6,239 bases of DNA from a virus (Duplodnaviria > Heunggongvirae > Uroviricota > Caudoviricetes). The position numbers and the translations under genes were made by a program. Below, in pieces: positions 1 through 6,239 of the stretch; position 1 is the first letter of the stretch, and every line of letters starts with the position of its first letter. Location of the stretch: IMG/VR virus record IMGVR_UViG_2706794664_000014. One strand, 5' to 3'. The notes under the pieces were generated by a model that was not told the origin of the DNA, ran no database searches, and saw nothing but the letters and a program-made list of their open reading frames with translations.

Positions 1-664
1 CTGTGTTGTTCTGAGGTGAGCATATCACCTCTGTTCAGGTGGCCAAATTCAGTGTGCCACTTCACTTAGCAGCACCTAAGCAACAATTGACTAACAGATT
101 CGGTAGAGTCTATCTCATAGGTCAACTTCATAAACTCAGAGCTAAGTTACCTTGAAAGATTCTACCAAGAACTACACAGGTGTTATTTAGTCTGACTGTG
201 AAGGGATATTTAACGGGAGAAGAGATACGATATAACCCGAAGGGAGAGTATCATCTTAACAATTATCTTAAGAATAAAAACTGAAAAACTCTTAACAGAT
301 AACCACCTAGAAAGAAGGGAACGATAAGACCAGAGGTAGTGACCTGTTAAACAGGCTGTTTCAAAGTCTCTTAAATAAGTAAGGTCATGTGAACAATCTT
401 ACCATTTTGTCAATGCTTTTGTCTTTGACCTAAATCAATAAAATGTATCGTTTGATATGCTTTTAAACAAAATAGCTAAAAAATCTTTTTTTAGAGGGGC
501 GCTTCGCTTGGGGTCACTATGAATGATTTTTCTCTCGCTAAGAGAGCGCTTACAGAGGTCTTTCAAATCTCAATAGCCAGCCGAGGAACACAGGAAACCG
601 AGGGAAGAAAAACTATTGTGATTACCTTGAACAAGGTCTGTAAAGGTCGTTTAAGAGGTCGGTT

Positions 665-856
665 NNNNNNNNNNNNNNNNNNNNNNNNNNNNNNNNNNNN
701 NNNNNNNNNNNNNNNNNNNNNNNNNNNNNNNNNNNNNNNNNNNNNNNNNNNNNNNNNNNNNNNNNNNNNNNNNNNNNNNNNNNNNNNNNNNNNNNNNNNN
801 NNNNNNNNNNNNNNNNNNNNNNNNNNNNNNNNNNNNNNNNNNNNNNNNNNNNNNNN
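665..856. other. Run of 192 N (unresolved or masked sequence)
   Basis: Directly visible N-run; nothing inside can be annotated. Six-frame ORFs crossing it (poly-X translations) are artefacts. Confidence 1.
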
Positions 857-939
857 TTACTGTCAGAGAGGCGAATGCTTGATAGATACAGCTTTCCGGT
901 TCTGTCAAGCTATTTTTTAATAGATAGCACAAAATGCTA

Positions 940-1016
940 AAGACACCCCTGTACCATAGACTTCTATCTGTCATCTCGTGCAGGGGTTTTGAAGGAGTTT
1001 AACGGGGGTCTGTGTG
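940..1016 (+). repeat. Degenerate or partly deleted copy of the intergenic inverted-arm element (hairpin plus right-arm remnant)
   Basis: 997-1016 gtttaac-gggggtctgtgtg matches the right arm of copy 1 (gtttaac...gaagaggtctgtgtg) with about 21 nt missing. 10-mer ggtctgtgtg is shared between 1007-1016 and 1282-1291. The acccctg motif (945-951) recurs in the spacer of copy 2 (tacccctg, about 2902-2909). 7-bp stem acccctg/caggggt at 945-951 and 981-987. Confidence 0.35.
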
Positions 1017-1175
1017 GTCGTTATCCTTAAGGTCAAGCGTCCATGTACGACCGAACAGTTTAAAGACAACAAGCACTCTGACGAGGACGTAGCGAAGTAG
1101 CAGGCCTGCAATCAGCCCAATACCTCCACCAGTCCATACATCAGGTGACCCCAGCTCAGGAGGGAGATTTACCAT
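999..1175 (-). CDS. Hypothetical small membrane protein (58 aa, one predicted hydrophobic helix)
   Basis: Only open frame in this GC-richer island. Minus-strand ATG at 1175-1173 preceded by AAGGA with a 6-nt spacer. Translation MVNLPPELGSPDVWTGGGIGLIAGLLLRYVLVRVLVVFKLFGRTW... contains a transmembrane-like stretch. The 110-aa form from 1331 would run across the conserved intergenic repeat, so the short form is preferred. Coding status unproven. Confidence 0.3.
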   Translation of the reverse strand: MVNLPPELGSPDVWTGGGIGLIAGLLLRYVLVRVLVVFKLFGRTWTLDLKDNDHTDPR

Positions 1176-1189
1176 TAGTTTTCCTTGTA

Positions 1190-1287
1190 AGACGCTCTCA
1201 ATCGCATTCTGACACAAAAAGTACCTGACCTTATGAGTTGACCTGAAGAGGTCGTTTAACTCGTTACAGGGCGATTGAAGAGGTCTG
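1190..1287 (+). repeat. Intergenic inverted-arm element, copy 1 (left arm 1190-1221, variable centre 1222-1253, right arm 1254-1287)
   Basis: Left arm agacgctctcaatcgcattctgacacaaaaag matches 2831-2862 at 30/32. Right arm gtttaactcgttacagggcgattgaagaggtctg matches 2918-2951 at 31/34. The arms are inverted relative to each other (ctcaatcgc versus gcgattgag; terminal cagac/gtctg). Internal direct repeat gaagaggtc at 1245-1253 and 1277-1285. Confidence 0.7.
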
Positions 1288-1346
1288 TGTGCAATGCAAA
1301 ATATGCGACCAAATACATAGCCACGCCTCATATTTTACTCTCCCCA

Positions 1347-1606
1347 NNNNNNNNNNNNNNNNNNNNNNNNNNNNNNNNNNNNNNNNNNNNNNNNNNNNNN
1401 NNNNNNNNNNNNNNNNNNNNNNNNNNNNNNNNNNNNNNNNNNNNNNNNNNNNNNNNNNNNNNNNNNNNNNNNNNNNNNNNNNNNNNNNNNNNNNNNNNNN
1501 NNNNNNNNNNNNNNNNNNNNNNNNNNNNNNNNNNNNNNNNNNNNNNNNNNNNNNNNNNNNNNNNNNNNNNNNNNNNNNNNNNNNNNNNNNNNNNNNNNNN
1601 NNNNNN
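1347..1606. other. Run of 260 N (unresolved or masked sequence)
   Basis: Directly visible N-run; it hides the 5' part and start codon of the gene ending at 2039. Confidence 1.
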
Positions 1607-1607
1607 G

Positions 1608-2039
1608 AACATTGAAGCGGTCATTCGTAGCATTACGCCACGAGACAGATTTATGCCAGTACGCAAAACAACAAAGAATACTATTAAAAATTATCTGGCT
1701 AACTTTGACAGTTACGAGCAGTTACCAAGCAAGCTTGATGATGTTTTTATTGGGTTCTGTAGAAGTGAAGGCCACCCGAAATACAACAAAAAACTATTTT
1801 ATCTGCTAAAGAATCTTGACGAAATTAACGCATCCACCGTGACAAATCATCTTCAGCGACAGGCAACCAGACTTAGTTACGAATTACCAAGCGATAAATA
1901 TTGCGCTTTGCTTGCTGTGATGTGCGCGAAATTAATTGGCATTGTTGAACATCATATTGCCGTTGGGAATATTGAGCCAATGGAAAACGAGCAACCAGAT
2001 TTCGAGTTTGACCCCTATTTAGTTACAGAGGATTTTTAA
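1608..2039 (+). CDS. Hypothetical protein, 5'-truncated by the N-run (visible C-terminal 143 aa)
   Basis: Open frame from the first resolved codon (1608) to TAA at 2037-2039. Stop is immediately followed by the ATG of the next gene (translational coupling). Start lies in or before the gap; candidate starts TTG 1275 and GTG 1289 sit just after the GAGGTCTG motif but frame continuity across the gap cannot be verified. No recognisable family. Confidence 0.55.
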   Translation, partial: NIEAVIRSITPRDRFMPVRKTTKNTIKNYLANFDSYEQLPSKLDDVFIGFCRSEGHPKYNKKLFYLLKNLDEINASTVTNHLQRQATRLSYELPSDKYCALLAVMCAKLIGIVEHHIAVGNIEPMENEQPDFEFDPYLVTEDF

Positions 2040-2318
2040 ATGAATAAACACACATTAACCAGAGTTACAAAGACAGCCTTTGATGAACTGAACCGAATCA
2101 AAAACATTACAGGTCTGCCACACTCAGCAGTGATGAAGCTTGCAATTAACCGTGATATTAACGAACAGGATTTGCTTAATAGTCGCTTAGAGGCTGCAAG
2201 ACACCATATCAGGATTAAGCAAGATGACCTTGATAGTCTGAAATCCTTAAATGCTTTTGGACTGGATTTAGCAAGGTTACTAAGTATCAAAATTCACAAA
2301 CTGTCTCAGGAGGTCTGA
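2040..2318 (+). CDS. Small DNA-binding-like protein, possible ribbon-helix-helix (Arc/MetJ/CopG-type) regulator, 92 aa
   Basis: ATG 2040 directly after the upstream stop; SD AGAGGA at 2027-2032 with 7-nt spacer. N-terminus TLTRVTKTAFDELNRIKNITGLPHSAVMKLAINR fits a beta-strand / helix / turn / helix pattern typical of RHH folds. Pattern-based only, no search run. Confidence 0.5.
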   Translation: MNKHTLTRVTKTAFDELNRIKNITGLPHSAVMKLAINRDINEQDLLNSRLEAARHHIRIKQDDLDSLKSLNAFGLDLARLLSIKIHKLSQEV

Positions 2319-2320
2319 TT

Positions 2321-2593
2321 ATGAAGCAATGGCGAGATGATATTAAACGGTTCTTTGCAACTTACTTCATGATTAATTATGAGACAGGAATGCTTGAATG
2401 GATTGATGGTGGAGAGGTTAAGACAAGAGATGATGCTTACGGTAATCCAATGATTCGTTATGGCACTCGTGATTATTATCTGAAGTATGTCATCTGGTTT
2501 TTGCATCATGAAGTTCAGGCAACTAAAAAGATTATCTTCAGGGATGGTAATAAAAGAAATTGCCACCCAAACAATTTACTCCTGGAGATTTAA
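2321..2593 (+). CDS. HNH-like small protein (90 aa) with a divergent HNH_3-type C-terminal motif
   Basis: SD AGGAGG at 2308-2313, 7-nt spacer, ATG 2321. C-terminus YLKYVIWFLHHEV...KKIIFRDGNKRNCHPNNLLLEI resembles the DGNK-x-NN...NL signature of phage HNH_3 homing endonucleases as I recall it, but the His usually preceding DG is replaced by F-R, so catalytic competence is uncertain. Confidence 0.5.
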   Translation: MKQWRDDIKRFFATYFMINYETGMLEWIDGGEVKTRDDAYGNPMIRYGTRDYYLKYVIWFLHHEVQATKKIIFRDGNKRNCHPNNLLLEI

Positions 2594-2793
2594 TGTTATG
2601 TATTAAATTCGAATATTTGACAGATAAAATGATTAAGCATGTATCAGACCTGCTCATCAAAGAAGGTGGTTTCGGTGATGCTTGCAATCCAAAAGATATC
2701 TTCATTCATGCCACCAGCCCAAACGCAACACTAAAGACAGCAGTTACAGCGGAATGGTTTGAACGAAATAAAGCGGAATTAGGTTATTGGTAG
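2593..2793 (+). CDS. Hypothetical small protein (66 aa)
   Basis: ATG 2593-2595 overlaps the upstream TAA (TAATG coupling); GGAG at 2584-2587 with 5-nt spacer; open to TAG at 2791-2793. The six-frame track starts this ORF at 2560, but the RBS supports 2593. Confidence 0.45.
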   Translation: MLCIKFEYLTDKMIKHVSDLLIKEGGFGDACNPKDIFIHATSPNATLKTAVTAEWFERNKAELGYW

Positions 2794-2830
2794 TCCGAGA
2801 CTTTAAGAGAAATTAGAAAAACAGCTTATC

Positions 2831-2951
2831 AGACGCTCTCAATCGCATTCTAACGCAAAAAACTATCTTATTTTAGGGTGGGTAATACCACTGTACAGGC
2901 TACCCCTGAAAAAGACTGTTTAGCTCGTTACAGAGCGATTGAGGAGGTCTG
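2831..2951 (+). repeat. Intergenic inverted-arm element, copy 2 (left arm 2831-2862, variable centre 2863-2917, right arm 2918-2951)
   Basis: Arms near-identical to copy 1 while the centre differs in sequence and length (55 versus 32 nt). As RNA the arms could pair into a roughly 17-bp imperfect stem (cagacgctctcaatcgc with gcgattgaggaggtctg) plus a further taacg/cgtta extension. Confidence 0.7.
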
Positions 2952-2971
2952 GTAAAAAGGAGATTTTAAAA

Positions 2972-3295
2972 ATGAACGAATATGAATTACAGATTTTCAT
3001 TGATAGCGACACTGCTATGATGGTGCAGGCTTTCGCTGATTCCGGTGTATCAATTGACCTTGATAAATTACTAAAGCTAATGGCTGAAAACTCAGAAGAA
3101 ATTGAAGACTTTATTCAGGAAATTGAAACTGGTGAACCGCGTTTTATGTTTCCTGTTACCGACTCAAACATGAAGCGTCTTATTATCGAAGAAACGAACA
3201 AATACAGCGTTAGCCCTGAAAAATATCTCAAGGCGGCTATAGCAATTTTGTATAGCGATAATATTCTGGTGACGGATTCGAAGGTGGTGCATTAA
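2972..3295 (+). CDS. Hypothetical acidic small protein (107 aa, about 21 Asp/Glu versus about 10 Lys/Arg)
   Basis: ATG 2972 preceded by AAGGAG at 2958-2963 (spacer about 8 nt). The track start TTG 2939 lies inside the repeat arm and is probably not used. Open to TAA at 3293-3295. No recognisable family. Confidence 0.6.
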   Translation: MNEYELQIFIDSDTAMMVQAFADSGVSIDLDKLLKLMAENSEEIEDFIQEIETGEPRFMFPVTDSNMKRLIIEETNKYSVSPEKYLKAAIAILYSDNILVTDSKVVH

Positions 3296-3360
3296 TGGAA
3301 TTGGTGATTATCTGTTTTGTATTGATTGGTATGATTGCAGGTGCATCTATTAAAGTATAA
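3295..3360 (+). CDS. Putative 21-aa hydrophobic peptide (MELVIICFVLIGMIAGASIKV)
   Basis: ATG 3295-3297 overlaps the last base of the upstream TAA; strong SD AAGGTGG at 3281-3287 with 7-nt spacer; single hydrophobic helix-length peptide; TAA at 3358-3360. Below the ORF-track cutoff, found by reading the sequence. Confidence 0.3.
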   Translation: MELVIICFVLIGMIAGASIKV

Positions 3361-3384
3361 ATGTTACCAATCTGTTAAAAGCTG

Positions 3385-3413
3385 TTGACAAACAACCTTG
3401 AGCATGACATAAT
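3385..3413 (+). promoter_or_regulatory. Sigma70-type promoter: -35 TTGACA (3385-3390), 17-bp spacer, extended -10 TGaCATAAT (3405-3413)
   Basis: Consensus -35 hexamer, optimal 17-bp spacing, -10 CATAAT preceded by TGn, AT-rich upstream region. Predicted start around 3420. Confidence 0.5.
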
Positions 3414-3425
3414 TGTATATATGGG

Positions 3426-3450
3426 GGAGAGCAATTCTCTCTTATTTTTT
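3426..3450 (+). promoter_or_regulatory. Promoter-proximal hairpin plus U-tract (GGAGAG-caatt-CTCTCT then tatttttt)
   Basis: 6-bp stem with one G-U pair, 5-nt loop and a T-run, about +6 to +30 from the predicted start. Candidate pause or attenuation element. Confidence 0.3.
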
Positions 3451-3582
3451 CTTTCAATAATCCGATGGATGGATATTCTGAGTTGGAAAGGTGCAATGCT
3501 TTTCGTCCTAGCCTTTCAGGTTGGTCTGAGAGGCTATCTCAAAAAGTCTTTGTTCATTCATTATTGAATCCTTTACAGCTTT

Positions 3583-3610
3583 GCCCTAATCATGAGTTAG
3601 GGCTTTCTTT
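3583..3610 (+). terminator. Candidate intrinsic terminator (stem gccctaa / ttagggc, 7-nt loop, tttcttt)
   Basis: 7-bp perfect stem at 3583-3589 and 3597-3603, followed by a T-rich tract at 3604-3610, about 190 nt downstream of the predicted start. Confidence 0.45.
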
Positions 3611-3680
3611 AAGAGTTTTTAAACAGAGCTTTTAAAGAAAGTTTTCCTGAAACTTCGTTAACGTTATAAGCAAACCTCCA

Positions 3681-3717
3681 AAGCCCTTCACAGATTATGT
3701 TTAGGGCTTTTCTTAAT
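3681..3717 (+). terminator. Second terminator-like hairpin (aagccct ... agggctt then ttcttaat), related to the first
   Basis: Shares ttagggcttt(t)ctt with the 3583-3610 hairpin; 7-bp stem with a 15-nt loop. Also overlaps a long-range inverted repeat, ttaatagagcatc (3712-3724) with ggtgctctattaa (3769-3781). Confidence 0.3.
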
Positions 3718-3810
3718 AGAGCATCTTTAATAAATCGTTAAGTCATCTTCTAAGTGTATTGGCGTTGAAGGTGCTCTATTAAGAAATAACCACACTTAGA
3801 GGAAATTATA

Positions 3811-4521
3811 ATGACAAACGATTTATATATTAACGGTAAAAAGGTTGATAGCTTCGGAGACTGGTCACCACAGGGTGAACATCCGCTACATACTATTCAG
3901 CGTCAAGAGCATGACAAGCGCATTGAGCTTGAGCAAGAGCTAAAGATGTCACCAAAGGTAATTTCCTTTGTGTCTCCTGAGCCTCAAGAAATGCCTGATA
4001 TCTGCAAAACTGAAGCACTATTTGAGCTTGAGCGTGAATATTACCCAGCTTTAAAATCACAGCGTCTTAGACTTGATGTCGCTTACGATGCTGTTAAGAA
4101 CTTCGAAGAAACCTCGAAACCTTCAGAATATGATATTGCTTACGAGATTAAGTCAAACCCGTTTATCTATTATGAAGGAAACTTTAATGATGGTTTTGGT
4201 ACAGCGATTGAAGACGTTCCTAAAGTTCTTCAAAGTATCCCTGAAGGGTTCCGGTTAATTGATGTCAGACAAGCATTAAGGGGTTCTGGTCAATTTATTC
4301 TGATGACTGATAAAACAGATGAAGAGATTCTTCAGTTAGCTGAAGCTAATTTGACTAAGCATTATTCCGGTAAACTGGATAAGTTAAAGCAAAAGCTTAA
4401 AAAAGAACTTGATACTATGAAAGAACTTGTTAGTGAATATGAGTCGCAGAAGAAGATTGCTTTGATGGCTGATATTGAGCAGTTAACGAAGATTTCTCAG
4501 AAGTATAGCAAGGCTGTTTGA
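3811..4521 (+). CDS. Hypothetical protein (236 aa) with a coiled-coil-like, Lys/Glu-rich C-terminus
   Basis: ATG 3811 preceded by GAGGA with 7-nt spacer; long uninterrupted frame to TGA at 4519-4521. No recognisable family. Sits upstream of the tape-measure-like gene, so a tail-module role is possible but unsupported. Confidence 0.7.
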   Translation: MTNDLYINGKKVDSFGDWSPQGEHPLHTIQRQEHDKRIELEQELKMSPKVISFVSPEPQEMPDICKTEALFELEREYYPALKSQRLRLDVAYDAVKNFEETSKPSEYDIAYEIKSNPFIYYEGNFNDGFGTAIEDVPKVLQSIPEGFRLIDVRQALRGSGQFILMTDKTDEEILQLAEANLTKHYSGKLDKLKQKLKKELDTMKELVSEYESQKKIALMADIEQLTKISQKYSKAV

Positions 4522-4543
4522 TTATGAATTAAAGAGGTGATTA

Positions 4544-4753
4544 ATGTTTGAAGAACGTTTAGAGACTATTCGGTCTGTTTGTGAAAACTTAAAGTTACAA
4601 ACTAAGCCAGCCTTAAGAATTAAAAACAAACGTCAAGTTATCACCTCACACAAACCAAAAACACGCAAGATTCCAAAGTGGTGTATTGACCGTATTCCTT
4701 CTGATGCTCAAATCATAGGTGAAACGGAATTACATTATCTTGTCCGACATTAA
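4544..4753 (+). CDS. Hypothetical small basic protein (69 aa)
   Basis: ATG 4544 preceded by AAGAGGTGA; the 12-mer ttaaagaggtga (4529-4540) recurs exactly at 4889-4900 upstream of the next gene. Lys/Arg-rich. TAA at 4751-4753. Confidence 0.55.
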   Translation: MFEERLETIRSVCENLKLQTKPALRIKNKRQVITSHKPKTRKIPKWCIDRIPSDAQIIGETELHYLVRH

Positions 4754-4777
4754 AAAAGAATTGGTTGGGTAAATACG

Positions 4778-4819
4778 GGGAGAGATTATCGAGTGACATC
4801 GGTAGCTCTCCCTTTTTTT
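4778..4819 (+). terminator. Rho-independent terminator (stem gggagag / ctctccc, loop about 21 nt, then ttttttt)
   Basis: 7-bp GC-rich stem at 4778-4784 and 4806-4812 immediately followed by a T7 run at 4813-4819, 25 nt after the stop of the upstream gene. Confidence 0.6.
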
Positions 4820-4909
4820 GTATGTGTGCTACGTGAAATCTGTAAAGCTAATACCCACACTGAAAAATAGAATTTACGTACAACACGCTTAAAGAGGTGA
4901 AAAATATGA

Positions 4910-6187
4910 ATGGCACAATTTAAAGTTGATGATTTTCTGATTGAGTTAAGTTTTAACTCTCAGAAAGTTTTAAAAGGCTTGGAAAAAGCCGAGAAACAAA
5001 CGATGCAGGTAGCATCACGAATTGAGAAGCGATTGAATAAGTCGTTTAGAGTTAATCCTACGCCTTTAAATGATTCTCTCAAACTAATGGAAAGAAATGT
5101 CGATAAAACTGTTTCCAAGATTGAGCAGCGTCTTAAAAACACTAGAGCGTTTAAGATTAAAACTGAAATTGAGGATACTTTAAAGCCACTTAGACAACCA
5201 AGACAGCCACGAATTAGCGGAAGCAGAGCAATCACAGCAGCTTACTCAGCGAATATGAGCAAGCTTCGTGACTTTAATCCTATGCTTGAGAAGTATTTTA
5301 AAAGCCAGTATTACAGCTTAAGCAGTAAATCCAAGACACTTGGAAACGAAACTTTTAATCGTGAGTTAGCAAAGTTAAATCAGTCTCTTCGTGAAACACT
5401 TTCTAAGTTTAACAAGACCACCAGCAAAAATAATCACAGTGAAAATGCTTCAAATAGTCTGGATGTATTAGCTACGAGTGCAATCAAAGCAGGTACAGCC
5501 ATTTATAGTTTTCAGACAGCCTTAGAAGCTTACAGGCGGATTATGGAGGTTGGTCTGAAAAAAGAAGCATCACAACGAGCGGCACAATTCGTTTTAGGTG
5601 ATGAAGGTGCTAAACGAGCTACAGAATTTGTTAAGAATCTTGCTGATAGTAGTGGTGTAGACCAGATTGAAACATTAAGCAGTTTTGCTAAGTTTTCCGC
5701 TGGTGCTGGTGATATGAATGCAGACCAGAAAGAATCCTTATTTTCTAATGTGATTGGTACATCCAGATTAATGGGGCTAAGCACCGATGAAATTAACGGG
5801 ATTTTAAAAGCTTTCGAGCAGATGGCATCTAAAGGAAAGATTCAGGCTGAAGAGCTACGCGGTCAATTAGGTGACAGAATGGCAGGTGCTTTTCAGTTAT
5901 TTGCCAGAAGTCTTGGGATGACTACGGAAGAATTAGACAAGGCCATGAAAGACGGTAAGATTCTTTCTAAAGATGTTCTTCCTAAAGTATCCGCTGAAAT
6001 GGGAAGGATGATTGATAAAGCTGGTGGATGGGAAAAGATTATTAACTCTACTCAGACGCAGTTAGGCCGCTTAAGTAATTCATGGAATAATAATCTGGCC
6101 TTAATGTTCGATGGTTCACAGGAAGGTTTAACAGACTTTACAAGGTCACTGACTAATTTACTTAATTCACTAAATAGCTGCGCTTAA
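4910..6187 (+). CDS. Phage tail tape-measure-like protein, N-terminal portion (425 aa)
   Basis: SD GAGG at 4894-4897, ATG 4910. N-terminus MAQFKVDDFLIELSFNSQKVLKGLEKAEK follows the pattern of the lambda gpH N-terminus as I recall it. Residues about 300-370 (GILKAFEQMASKGKIQAEELRGQLGDRMAGAFQLFARSLGMTTEELDKAMKDGKILSKDVLPKVSAEM) match the conserved tape-measure domain motif from memory. Low-complexity coiled-coil stretch between. Needs HMM confirmation. Confidence 0.7.
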   Translation: MAQFKVDDFLIELSFNSQKVLKGLEKAEKQTMQVASRIEKRLNKSFRVNPTPLNDSLKLMERNVDKTVSKIEQRLKNTRAFKIKTEIEDTLKPLRQPRQPRISGSRAITAAYSANMSKLRDFNPMLEKYFKSQYYSLSSKSKTLGNETFNRELAKLNQSLRETLSKFNKTTSKNNHSENASNSLDVLATSAIKAGTAIYSFQTALEAYRRIMEVGLKKEASQRAAQFVLGDEGAKRATEFVKNLADSSGVDQIETLSSFAKFSAGAGDMNADQKESLFSNVIGTSRLMGLSTDEINGILKAFEQMASKGKIQAEELRGQLGDRMAGAFQLFARSLGMTTEELDKAMKDGKILSKDVLPKVSAEMGRMIDKAGGWEKIINSTQTQLGRLSNSWNNNLALMFDGSQEGLTDFTRSLTNLLNSLNSCA

Positions 6188-6204
6188 TACCGCTACACTT
6201 TTGC

Positions 6205-6235
6205 CAGCCCATGTTTGCCTCCGGGGAATGGGCTG
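6205..6235 (+). other. GC-rich hairpin (cagcccat / atgggctg, 8-bp stem, 15-nt loop) 18 nt after the stop codon
   Basis: Perfect 8-bp inverted repeat at 6205-6212 and 6228-6235. Local GC is about 60% against about 38% for the window. Window ends before any T-tract could be seen. Confidence 0.4.
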
Positions 6236-6239
6236 ACGG

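Follow-up and report, generated by a model that had tools for sequence, protein, structure and literature searches.

Comparative analysis identifies a coupled gene pair on a mobile island of Escherichia coli and Shigella, made up of a gene for an acidic protein of 107 residues and an overlapping, unannotated gene for a short hydrophobic peptide. The arrangement of the two open reading frames is clearly non-random and exceeds what chance would give. Its conservation across loci indicates that ribosomes ending the 107-aa gene can reinitiate on the overlapping ATG, yielding a hydrophobic helix of 21–25 residues. Substitution patterns further indicate that the amino-acid sequence of this helix is under purifying selection. 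The upstream protein is predicted to contain two ribbon-helix-helix (RHH) units in one chain, forming a built-in pseudo-dimer.

The window, meaning the whole stretch of DNA that was analysed, is 6,239 nt long, has about 38% G+C as estimated by eye and contains two N-masked stretches. The pair and its immediate surroundings comprise the following features.

2825–2954, plus strand: leader ("repeat copy 2"), an extended hairpin of about 130 nt directly 5′ of the acidic-protein gene.
2957–2962, plus strand: Shine-Dalgarno sequence of the acidic-protein gene, AAGGAG, read directly from the sequence.
2972–3295, plus strand: acidic-protein gene, with ATG at 2972 and TAA at 3293–3295, encoding 107 aa; predicted single-chain double RHH protein.
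3281–3287, plus strand: Shine-Dalgarno sequence of the peptide gene, AAGGTGG, inside the end of the acidic-protein gene and 7 nt before the peptide's ATG.
3295–3360, plus strand: peptide gene encoding MELVIICFVLIGMIAGASIKV, 21 aa, GRAVY 2.2, a single hydrophobic helix with GMIAG as a GxxxG motif.
3362–3387, plus strand: three direct TGTT(A/G) iterons, beginning two bases after the peptide stop and spaced 11 and 10 bp apart.
3385–3413, plus strand: near-consensus sigma-70 promoter, TTGACA-17-CATAAT with an extended −10 TG (11/12), pointing to the tail genes.
3423–3445, plus strand: conserved, terminator-like G+C hairpin at or just past the predicted transcription start.

The junction between the two genes is directly visible in the sequence. 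The original prediction had read the acidic gene's stop as overlapping the start of a well-initiated peptide frame, and this is borne out: the last A of the TAA is also the first base of the ATG at 3295–3297, within reach of the AAGGTGG sequence. The loci compared come from complete E. coli and E. albertii genomes (19), from metagenomes (80) and from the most distant relative (4). Among the window and 99 loci, the TAATG overlap, with the peptide starting at stop+2, occurs in all 96 that have a complete region and an intact large ORF; of the other four loci, three run off the end of a contig and one carries a pseudogene. In the most divergent lineage (4 loci), the overlap takes the form ATGA and the peptide reads MTLIILWVLLGIVLSFAISMER. 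Overall, the stop/start overlap is kept in 100/100 intact loci through two overlap types and three peptide lengths. A purine motif (GAGG, AGGTGG or GGGG) precedes the peptide's ATG in 96/96 loci, though the C-terminal residues encoded there vary.

The encoded peptides comprise a 21-aa type, a 25-aa type with the consensus MGLIIAWTLLGLFVGCWVGNTVNKN and a 22-aa type whose sequence bridges both, and the ORF of one deletion variant has 19 codons. Every type retains an apolar run of 17–18 residues together with a G/A/S-xxx-G/A/S motif. Comparison of synonymous with non-synonymous change, which had been suggested as a check on the peptide frame, gives the 25-aa type a pooled pN/pS of 0.29 (pS 0.49 across 47 unique nucleotide sequences) against 1.16 and 1.21 in its off-frames. 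The 21-aa type gives 0.31, and off-frame values overall run from about 1.2 to 1.9. At three loci (L017–L019), the acidic gene has been swapped for an allele of 101–102 aa that is 26% identical, and both the overlap and the 25-aa peptide are retained behind it; across the data set, peptide types reassort freely with acidic-protein alleles. Because the overlap is kept in every intact locus, the peptide frame has such a low pN/pS and the junction survives a replaced upstream allele, the comparison argues for translational coupling and for a real gene. The peptide gene is therefore concluded, on comparative sequence grounds, to be real and unannotated, with the product itself, and not just its translation, under selection. 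The earlier view of a short, single-helix hydrophobic peptide gene overlooked by annotation thus holds well beyond the window.

Database records agree with this oversight. RefSeq has nothing annotated at the peptide ORF in the 19 genomes inspected, and five peptide variants looked up among about 15 billion predicted proteins were not found there. The peptide matches no known small-toxin family and no Pfam, PHROG or NCBIfam family. Rfam gives no match within the window at E ≤ 1, and the minus strand between 2897 and 3805 holds no promoter-like site from which an antisense transcript could start. A protein–peptide fusion made by frameshifting was also considered and is unlikely, as the junction has no slippery heptamer and fused homologues were not found.

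The upstream protein is as strongly negative as the original prediction described, with 21 D+E against 9 K+R residues, a net charge of −12 and a pI of 4.25. Acidity is a family-wide property (net −4 to −12 and pI 4.2–5.1 among 88 unique proteins), and the allele of the window lies at the acidic extreme of the charge range. The charge is also lopsided: computed by hand, the N-terminal repeat carries net −12 and the C-terminal repeat 0. The pN/pS of the gene is 0.33. L009 and L017 share 29% identity in the acidic gene but 98–100% in the flanking genes, and in the most distant lineage (4 loci) the large protein is 43% identical. Deep alleles are also present in genes neighbouring the acidic gene, so those of the acidic gene do not point specifically to an arms race.

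Relatives of the 107-aa protein are 97–110 aa long or carry N-terminal extensions. Close proteins of the family number 3132, and all of the 120 listed are named "hypothetical". Searched exhaustively with HMMER, 1.84 billion representatives yield only 18 clusters at 50% identity, all belonging to the same family or being fragments of it. Pfam, PHROGs, NCBIfam and PADLOC hold no family for the protein, the cassette has no blastn or tblastn match among 50,697 phage records, and a search of genome contigs with the single acidic protein recovers only one locus. Relatedness to the basic 92-aa neighbour is not significant (profile comparison E 0.07).

AlphaFold2 models the 107-aa protein with a pLDDT of 81 and a pTM of 0.75 from an alignment of 35 sequences that includes both deep alleles. 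The predicted elements are a strand (6–10), two helices (12–23 and 30–39) and a linker helix (41–50), followed in the second half by a strand (58–62) and two helices (65–78 and 82–96), which gives two beta-alpha-alpha units overall. The predicted strands of both units pair as one antiparallel ribbon, the arrangement that defines a tandem RHH protein, and the units span residues 5–96 of 107, filling the whole chain in the predicted structure. Foldseek against viral models leads to tandem-RHH proteins of archaeal viruses. A second AlphaFold model, with the 102-aa allele as target, has the same topology and the same top Foldseek set; both runs drew on the same sequences, and the other four models of each run have pLDDT values of 45–75. 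As a structure prediction, the RHH call is coherent. Structure prediction had also been suggested as a way to look for DNA-mimic surfaces, and here the earlier idea gains nothing: the model has no fold similarity to a known mimic, and a double RHH is predicted instead.

Profile searches give a complementary view of the protein. Pfam matches for 15 members include no RHH family, even at E ≤ 10, NCBIfam gives no match for the 107-aa protein, and a PDB profile search with it yields chance-level matches only. Internal duplication is not significant, the N-terminal and C-terminal halves aligning in register with an hhalign E of 0.08. Residues invariant across the deep alleles are D11, T14, G25, I48, G54, V62, D64, K68, R69, P82, E83, L86 and K87, and in the predicted structure they lie mostly on helices and caps and not on the outward face of the ribbon. 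That outward sheet face carries hydrophobic residues in most alleles, with F, L or M at position 9 and M at position 59, according to a reading of the strands and not a computation. An N-terminal repeat of net −12 combined with a hydrophobic outward sheet face is unusual for a DNA-binding RHH protein.

Upstream, the pair lies directly after a repeat, as had been noted from the sequence alone. Positions 2825–2861 and 2918–2951 are direct repeats of 1184–1220 and 1254–1287 with 89–91% identity, and this second copy ends 20 nt before the acidic gene's ATG. In the leader, the 5′ arm GACGCTCTCAATCGC and the 3′ arm GCGATTGAGGAGGTC base-pair with each other; folded as RNA, the element reaches −51.6 kcal/mol (z −5.7) and leaves the Shine-Dalgarno sequence and the ATG unpaired. 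Repeat copy 1, ahead of the early operon, folds with a z of −2.9. The leader fold is kept with a different inner hairpin in the variant L090, and L001 has a third repeat copy, in inverted orientation, ahead of the small recombinase. The Shine-Dalgarno context AGGAG/AGGA(A/T)TTTAAAAATG before the acidic gene is common to four different leader types. There is no promoter-like site from the preceding gene to position 2972, and the acidic and peptide genes therefore probably lie towards the 3′ end of the early transcript.

Downstream, the iterons overlap the −35 element of the promoter just past the peptide gene. Their spacing is 11 + 11 bp in most relatives, and the pattern TGTTR-N6-TGTTR occurs twice in the window, where 0.09 matches would be expected. 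The 39-nt block of iterons and −35 element equals the consensus in 53 of 94 loci and has at most three differences in 92 of 94, next to synonymous sites that differ by 42–49%. The promoter at 3385 is conserved in relatives, taking the form TTGACA-17-TAGCAT in the divergent lineage. Arms of the hairpin co-vary among loci (GGGAGAG/CTCTC, GGAAGAG/CTCTTCC, GGGGAAG/TTTCCCC and GGGAG/CTCCC). Because a T-run follows it in the window, the hairpin could be the terminator of the early operon; many relatives have no T-run. The notion that the block after the peptide was borrowed from lambdoid late promoters was rejected, since the stand-alone blastn matches (H55–H60) are the same island with a divergent allele.

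The same iteron motif and spacing recur 14 times within a 0.76-kb stretch of the Felix-O1-like phage CHB7, inside a gene-free region of 1.7 kb where TGTTA(A/G) iterons follow each other at 11-nt spacing. The phage iteron pair TGTTAGCAATCTGTTA and the island pair TGTTACCAATCTGTTA match at 15 of 16 positions. The adjacent TGTTA iterons are candidate binding sites, but a role of the acidic protein as a repressor on them was downgraded. In an alignment reading, the 107-aa protein and the 26%-identical 102-aa allele have different residues at the predicted DNA-facing positions, while the iteron block behind both is the same. Recognition of the iterons through the sheet is disfavoured because the predicted ribbon residues differ in front of identical iterons, and direct binding of the acidic protein to the adjacent block is given a low likelihood.

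The wider context is an island. E. coli A0 34/86 carries the homologous region as an island of about 10.6 kb between yciI and tonB. Its first gene encodes a small serine recombinase; then come about 2 kb free of genes and an early operon with genes for a 185-aa, a 92-aa, an HNH and a 66-aa protein. The acidic gene and the peptide follow, then the promoter, a leader of about 450 nt and genes for proteins of 236 aa and 73 aa. The last three genes encode a tape-measure protein (691 aa), a Dit-like/hub protein (256 aa) and a large serine recombinase (506 aa). At least three unrelated sets of early genes occur, while everything from the cassette through to the recombinase is constant. The 506-aa recombinase (Pfam Resolvase + Recombinase) adjoins tonB and also occurs where the island has integrated at a second site. 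Elsewhere, the island has a gene for another small membrane protein.

Several of these components connect the island with a virulent phage. Its tape-measure protein is 28–32% identical to gp68 of Suspvirus CHB7, and the hub gene that follows is 71% identical to gp67, gp68 and gp67 being adjacent in the phage. CHB7 is a Felix-O1-like phage of the Ounavirinae. A 53-nt island segment (window 315–366) is 87% identical to the 1.7-kb gene-free region of CHB7, and the other island proteins have no phage homologue. A large serine recombinase, combined with a partial tail module (tape measure and hub) related to a virulent phage, is what characterizes PLE-like elements, and by this comparison the E. 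coli and Shigella island looks like a so far undescribed satellite of the PLE type with Felix-O1-type phages as helpers. Genes for 236- and 69-aa proteins are candidates for the chaperone of such a tail module. No description of the island or of the gene pair was found in the literature. A blastn search recovers the cassette from 477 of 5426 complete E. coli genomes (about 9%); since blastn misses deep alleles, the true share is at least this high. The shared 53-nt segment and the iterons are indirect hints that a helper phage may trigger excision, replication and packaging. As provirus calls made on isolate genomes, the IMG/VR matches are uninformative on packaging. Since the tape-measure gene in the window is shortened to 425 aa, the island copy there is probably defective.

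The reading preferred here, held tentatively and at somewhat less than even confidence, combines these elements: the coupled pair would close the early operon, the protein serving as an adaptor or regulator and the peptide as a membrane effector against the helper phage. The pair would thus stand at the end of the early operon of an integrative island of about 10 kb that seems made to parasitise Felix-O1-type virulent phages, a counterpart in E. coli and Shigella of the Vibrio PLE satellites. In the cytoplasm, the acidic protein would bind either nucleic acid or a partner protein and serve as an adaptor or regulator at the junction of the early operon and the iteron-guarded tail-gene promoter. 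The peptide would insert in the inner membrane and, through helix–helix contacts made by its GxxxG or small-xxx-small motif, engage a membrane component of the helper phage or the host, affecting for example lysis timing or DNA entry, by analogy with LidI of PLE. Both products would function in parallel, in a proportion fixed by coupling, and would not form a toxin–antitoxin pair. A two-pronged anti-helper device of a widespread, hitherto undescribed family of E. coli and Shigella satellites that exploit virulent Felix-O1-like phages is quite unlikely. The RHH protein would then have lost ordinary DNA binding and be a decoy or inhibitor of a helper component, for instance the phage protein that binds TGTTA iterons or the tape-measure/tail-initiation complex (compare PLE11 Rta), and the micro-peptide would act on the helper's membrane steps, for instance holin timing or DNA entry (compare PLE LidI).

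Gene order alone might bring a toxin–antitoxin system to mind, since an RHH-type gene stands first and overlaps a downstream gene, as in type II operons, and the peptide's composition (GRAVY 2.2) suits a type I toxin, without homology to Hok, Ibs, Ldr, TisB or ShoB. In such a toxin–antitoxin-like or abortive-infection module, the peptide would be a membrane-depolarising toxin, and the acidic RHH protein, produced earlier and in excess, would repress or sequester it until phage infection upsets the balance. This is unlikely: the RHH units fill the chain and leave no separate, disordered toxin-binding tail, and the downstream product, unlike a type II toxin, is an apolar helix of 21–25 aa that, buried in the membrane, offers a soluble protein little to bind. 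Free recombination of peptide types and protein alleles argues against a cognate pair, a promoter or operator was not found directly upstream, and no toxin-family or PADLOC model matches. The same reassortment speaks against a tight interface and so weighs on the proposal that both products form one complex, in which the hydrophobic RHH sheet face holds the peptide as a detachable membrane anchor for the acidic protein and its cargo. Strict coupling would fix their co-synthesis, the conserved hydrophobic residues at outward sheet positions 9 and 59 (most alleles, from the structure reading) would suit such a contact, and the deeply invariant K68, R69, P82, E83, L86 and K87 lie on the helices, off the sheet. 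Fused versions are missing among the relatives, and on balance this complex is judged distinctly improbable.

The original prediction had likened the acidic protein to DNA mimics and anti-restriction proteins, and that analogy did not stand: charge alone is behind it, and the protein has no PADLOC, Pfam or PHROG match. A DNA mimic or anti-restriction decoy accompanied by an unrelated passenger peptide is accordingly very improbable, even with a negative charge that extends across the family and mobile elements that commonly carry proteins of the Ocr and ArdA type into new hosts. A decoy role may still be conceived for the N-terminal half, because the charge is concentrated in the N-terminal repeat. 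The peptide, for its part, might be functionless, with translation alone keeping ribosomes on the mRNA up to the iteron and promoter block. Consistent with this, the ORF always ends within two bases of a conserved block starting (A)TGTTAC, whatever its length, which varies between 21, 22 and 25 codons and drops to 19 in the deletion variant. The low in-frame pN/pS set against about 1.2 off-frame means that amino-acid changes are selected against, and the apolar stretch and small-xxx-small motif are kept despite 49% synonymous divergence, which leaves the translation-only explanation extremely unlikely.

The pair of a tandem RHH protein and a small membrane protein joins two known kinds of product, and the analysis adds to them a conserved membrane peptide gene of 21–25 residues that has so far gone unannotated. 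It also offers a testable fold, an unusually acidic single-chain RHH, for a "hypothetical protein" family of some 3000 members. The context may outweigh the pair itself, as the island shows hallmarks of PLE-type satellites in E. coli and Shigella and seems aimed at Felix-O1-like phages. These phages are in use for typing and biocontrol. If the island is confirmed, E. coli would become a tractable model of how satellites manipulate tail assembly, and the gene pair would be among the first candidate effectors.

Among known proteins, the closest tandem-RHH structures are F-plasmid TraY (9f0x_E), AvtR (4hv0), DndE (7x4e) and the engineered single-chain Arc (1u9p). AvtR is a regulator of an archaeal virus. 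Compared with these four, the 107-aa protein is strongly acidic, with its negative charge in the N-terminal repeat, shows no sequence-profile similarity and has an additional acidic linker helix at 41–50 in the prediction; its predicted sheet residues are partly hydrophobic and are not conserved between alleles. With DNA mimics such as Ocr, ArdA and HI1450-type proteins, it shares strong negative charge but neither homology nor fold similarity. The peptide resembles Ibs, ShoB, TisB, Ldr and Hok, as well as AcrZ, MgtS and KdpF, in its size, its single apolar helix and its omission from annotation. Unlike type I toxins, it comes without an antisense RNA, an antisense promoter, an Rfam family or a family match, and while those toxins are tightly repressed, its translation is coupled to the upstream gene and has a good Shine-Dalgarno sequence.

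Satellites of the PLE type provide the nearest counterparts in organization. LidI of Vibrio cholerae PLE is a small transmembrane ORF of 66 or 121 aa that annotation had missed, experiments show that it collapses lysis inhibition, and the PLE carrying it depends on a virulent myophage (PMC7182436). The peptide gene is likewise an overlooked small transmembrane ORF on an element with a large serine recombinase, whereas its product has only 21–25 aa and is coupled to an upstream gene; the two are likened by description and not by sequence. PLE satellites of Vibrio combine a serine integrase with their own chaperone, tape-measure and hub genes, which produce chimeric, shorter tails (PMC12987554). 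Their PLE11 member encodes Rta, an 80-aa tail-assembly inhibitor whose target, the helper's tape-measure protein, was found through escape mutants and to which its authors could assign no function from the predicted structure (PMC12987554). Like Rta, the 107-aa protein is small, lacks recognisable similarity in sequence to known families and belongs to an element with its own tape-measure and hub genes. Unlike Rta, it has a clear RHH-type prediction, and this likeness too is one of description and not of sequence. The 107-aa gene, with its deeply divergent alleles, lies directly upstream of a tail operon equivalent to that of PLE11.

The entire window (1-6239) is part of an integrative island of about 10.6 kb, of which the related locus in E. 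coli A0 34/86 (L001, 8600-19900) carries a fuller copy, inserted between yciI and tonB. The island encodes two serine recombinases, one small and one large, and also carries an HNH gene, a tape-measure gene and a hub gene; relatives of the last two are the adjacent gp68 and gp67 of Felix-O1-like phages. The features of the window considered here are as follows.

Features of the window (window coordinates unless L001 or CHB7 is named)
315-366: 53-nt stretch, equivalent to L001 10587-10638 and 87% identical to the minus strand of phage CHB7 at 75910-75961
3362-3387, also about 343-352 and 640-664: TGTTA(A/G) iterons, spaced 10-11 nt
665-856 and 1348-1606: stretches masked with N
999-1175, minus strand: conserved 58-aa ORF (MVNLPPELGSPDVWTGGGIGLIAGLLLRYVLV...) with one transmembrane segment
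1184-1287 and 2825-2954: long hairpin leader repeat, also at L001 10131-10294 (minus strand)
2040-2318: 92-aa early gene with a basic product (pI 9.8-10.4)
3421-3810: predicted tail-transcript leader with a co-varying 5' hairpin
3583-3603: terminator-like hairpin inside that leader
3811-4521: 236-aa gene
4910-6187: shortened tape-measure gene

The window's copy of the island is probably defective, because its tape-measure gene encodes 425 aa, compared with 691 aa in L001, and similarity to L001 ends at 6172, with unrelated sequence beyond; perhaps an insertion caused this defect. L001 also supplies the sequence equivalent to the masked runs: two 83-nt direct repeats (11012-11188) for the first, and a near-consensus promoter with the start of a 185-aa early gene for the second. 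The 58-aa minus-strand ORF is annotated by RefSeq in some genomes, and other island variants carry a different membrane ORF of 58-61 aa in the same orientation.

The hairpin leader repeats form a family, with one member ahead of each transcription unit, and may be processing or attenuation sites. Upstream of the acidic gene (2972-3295), leaders of at least four mosaic types occur across different islands, sharing an AGAATGC/GCATTCT motif. The same operon includes the 92-aa gene, which is missing from islands with other early-gene sets. Its basic product has two RHH-like sequence repeats and a weak NCBIfam match to DndE, and may, from its sequence, be a second tandem-RHH protein alongside the acidic one.

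Downstream, a strong promoter is predicted to yield a tail-transcript leader of about 390 nt. This leader, which had no match in Rfam, contains the co-varying and terminator-like hairpins and an additional one at about 3680-3716, seen by eye and missing from the scan's list; together, these hairpins suggest read-through control or a small RNA. The 236-aa gene that follows exists as two alleles with only 27% mutual identity. RefSeq frequently names it 'transposase', but its product matched no transposase family in Pfam or NCBIfam; judged by its location, the gene may encode an analogue of a tail-assembly chaperone.

Island iterons overlap the -35 element of the promoter at 3385, and the 1.7-kb non-coding region of CHB7, a Felix-O1-like Suspvirus, has 14 TGTTA(A/G) iterons within 0.76 kb (L101 30447-31208). 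The phage counterpart of the 53-nt stretch falls in this gene-free region, and the stretch might be an origin, a packaging site or a regulator site common to island and phage. We found no published description of such an island in the literature; its layout is similar to that of Vibrio PLE satellites.
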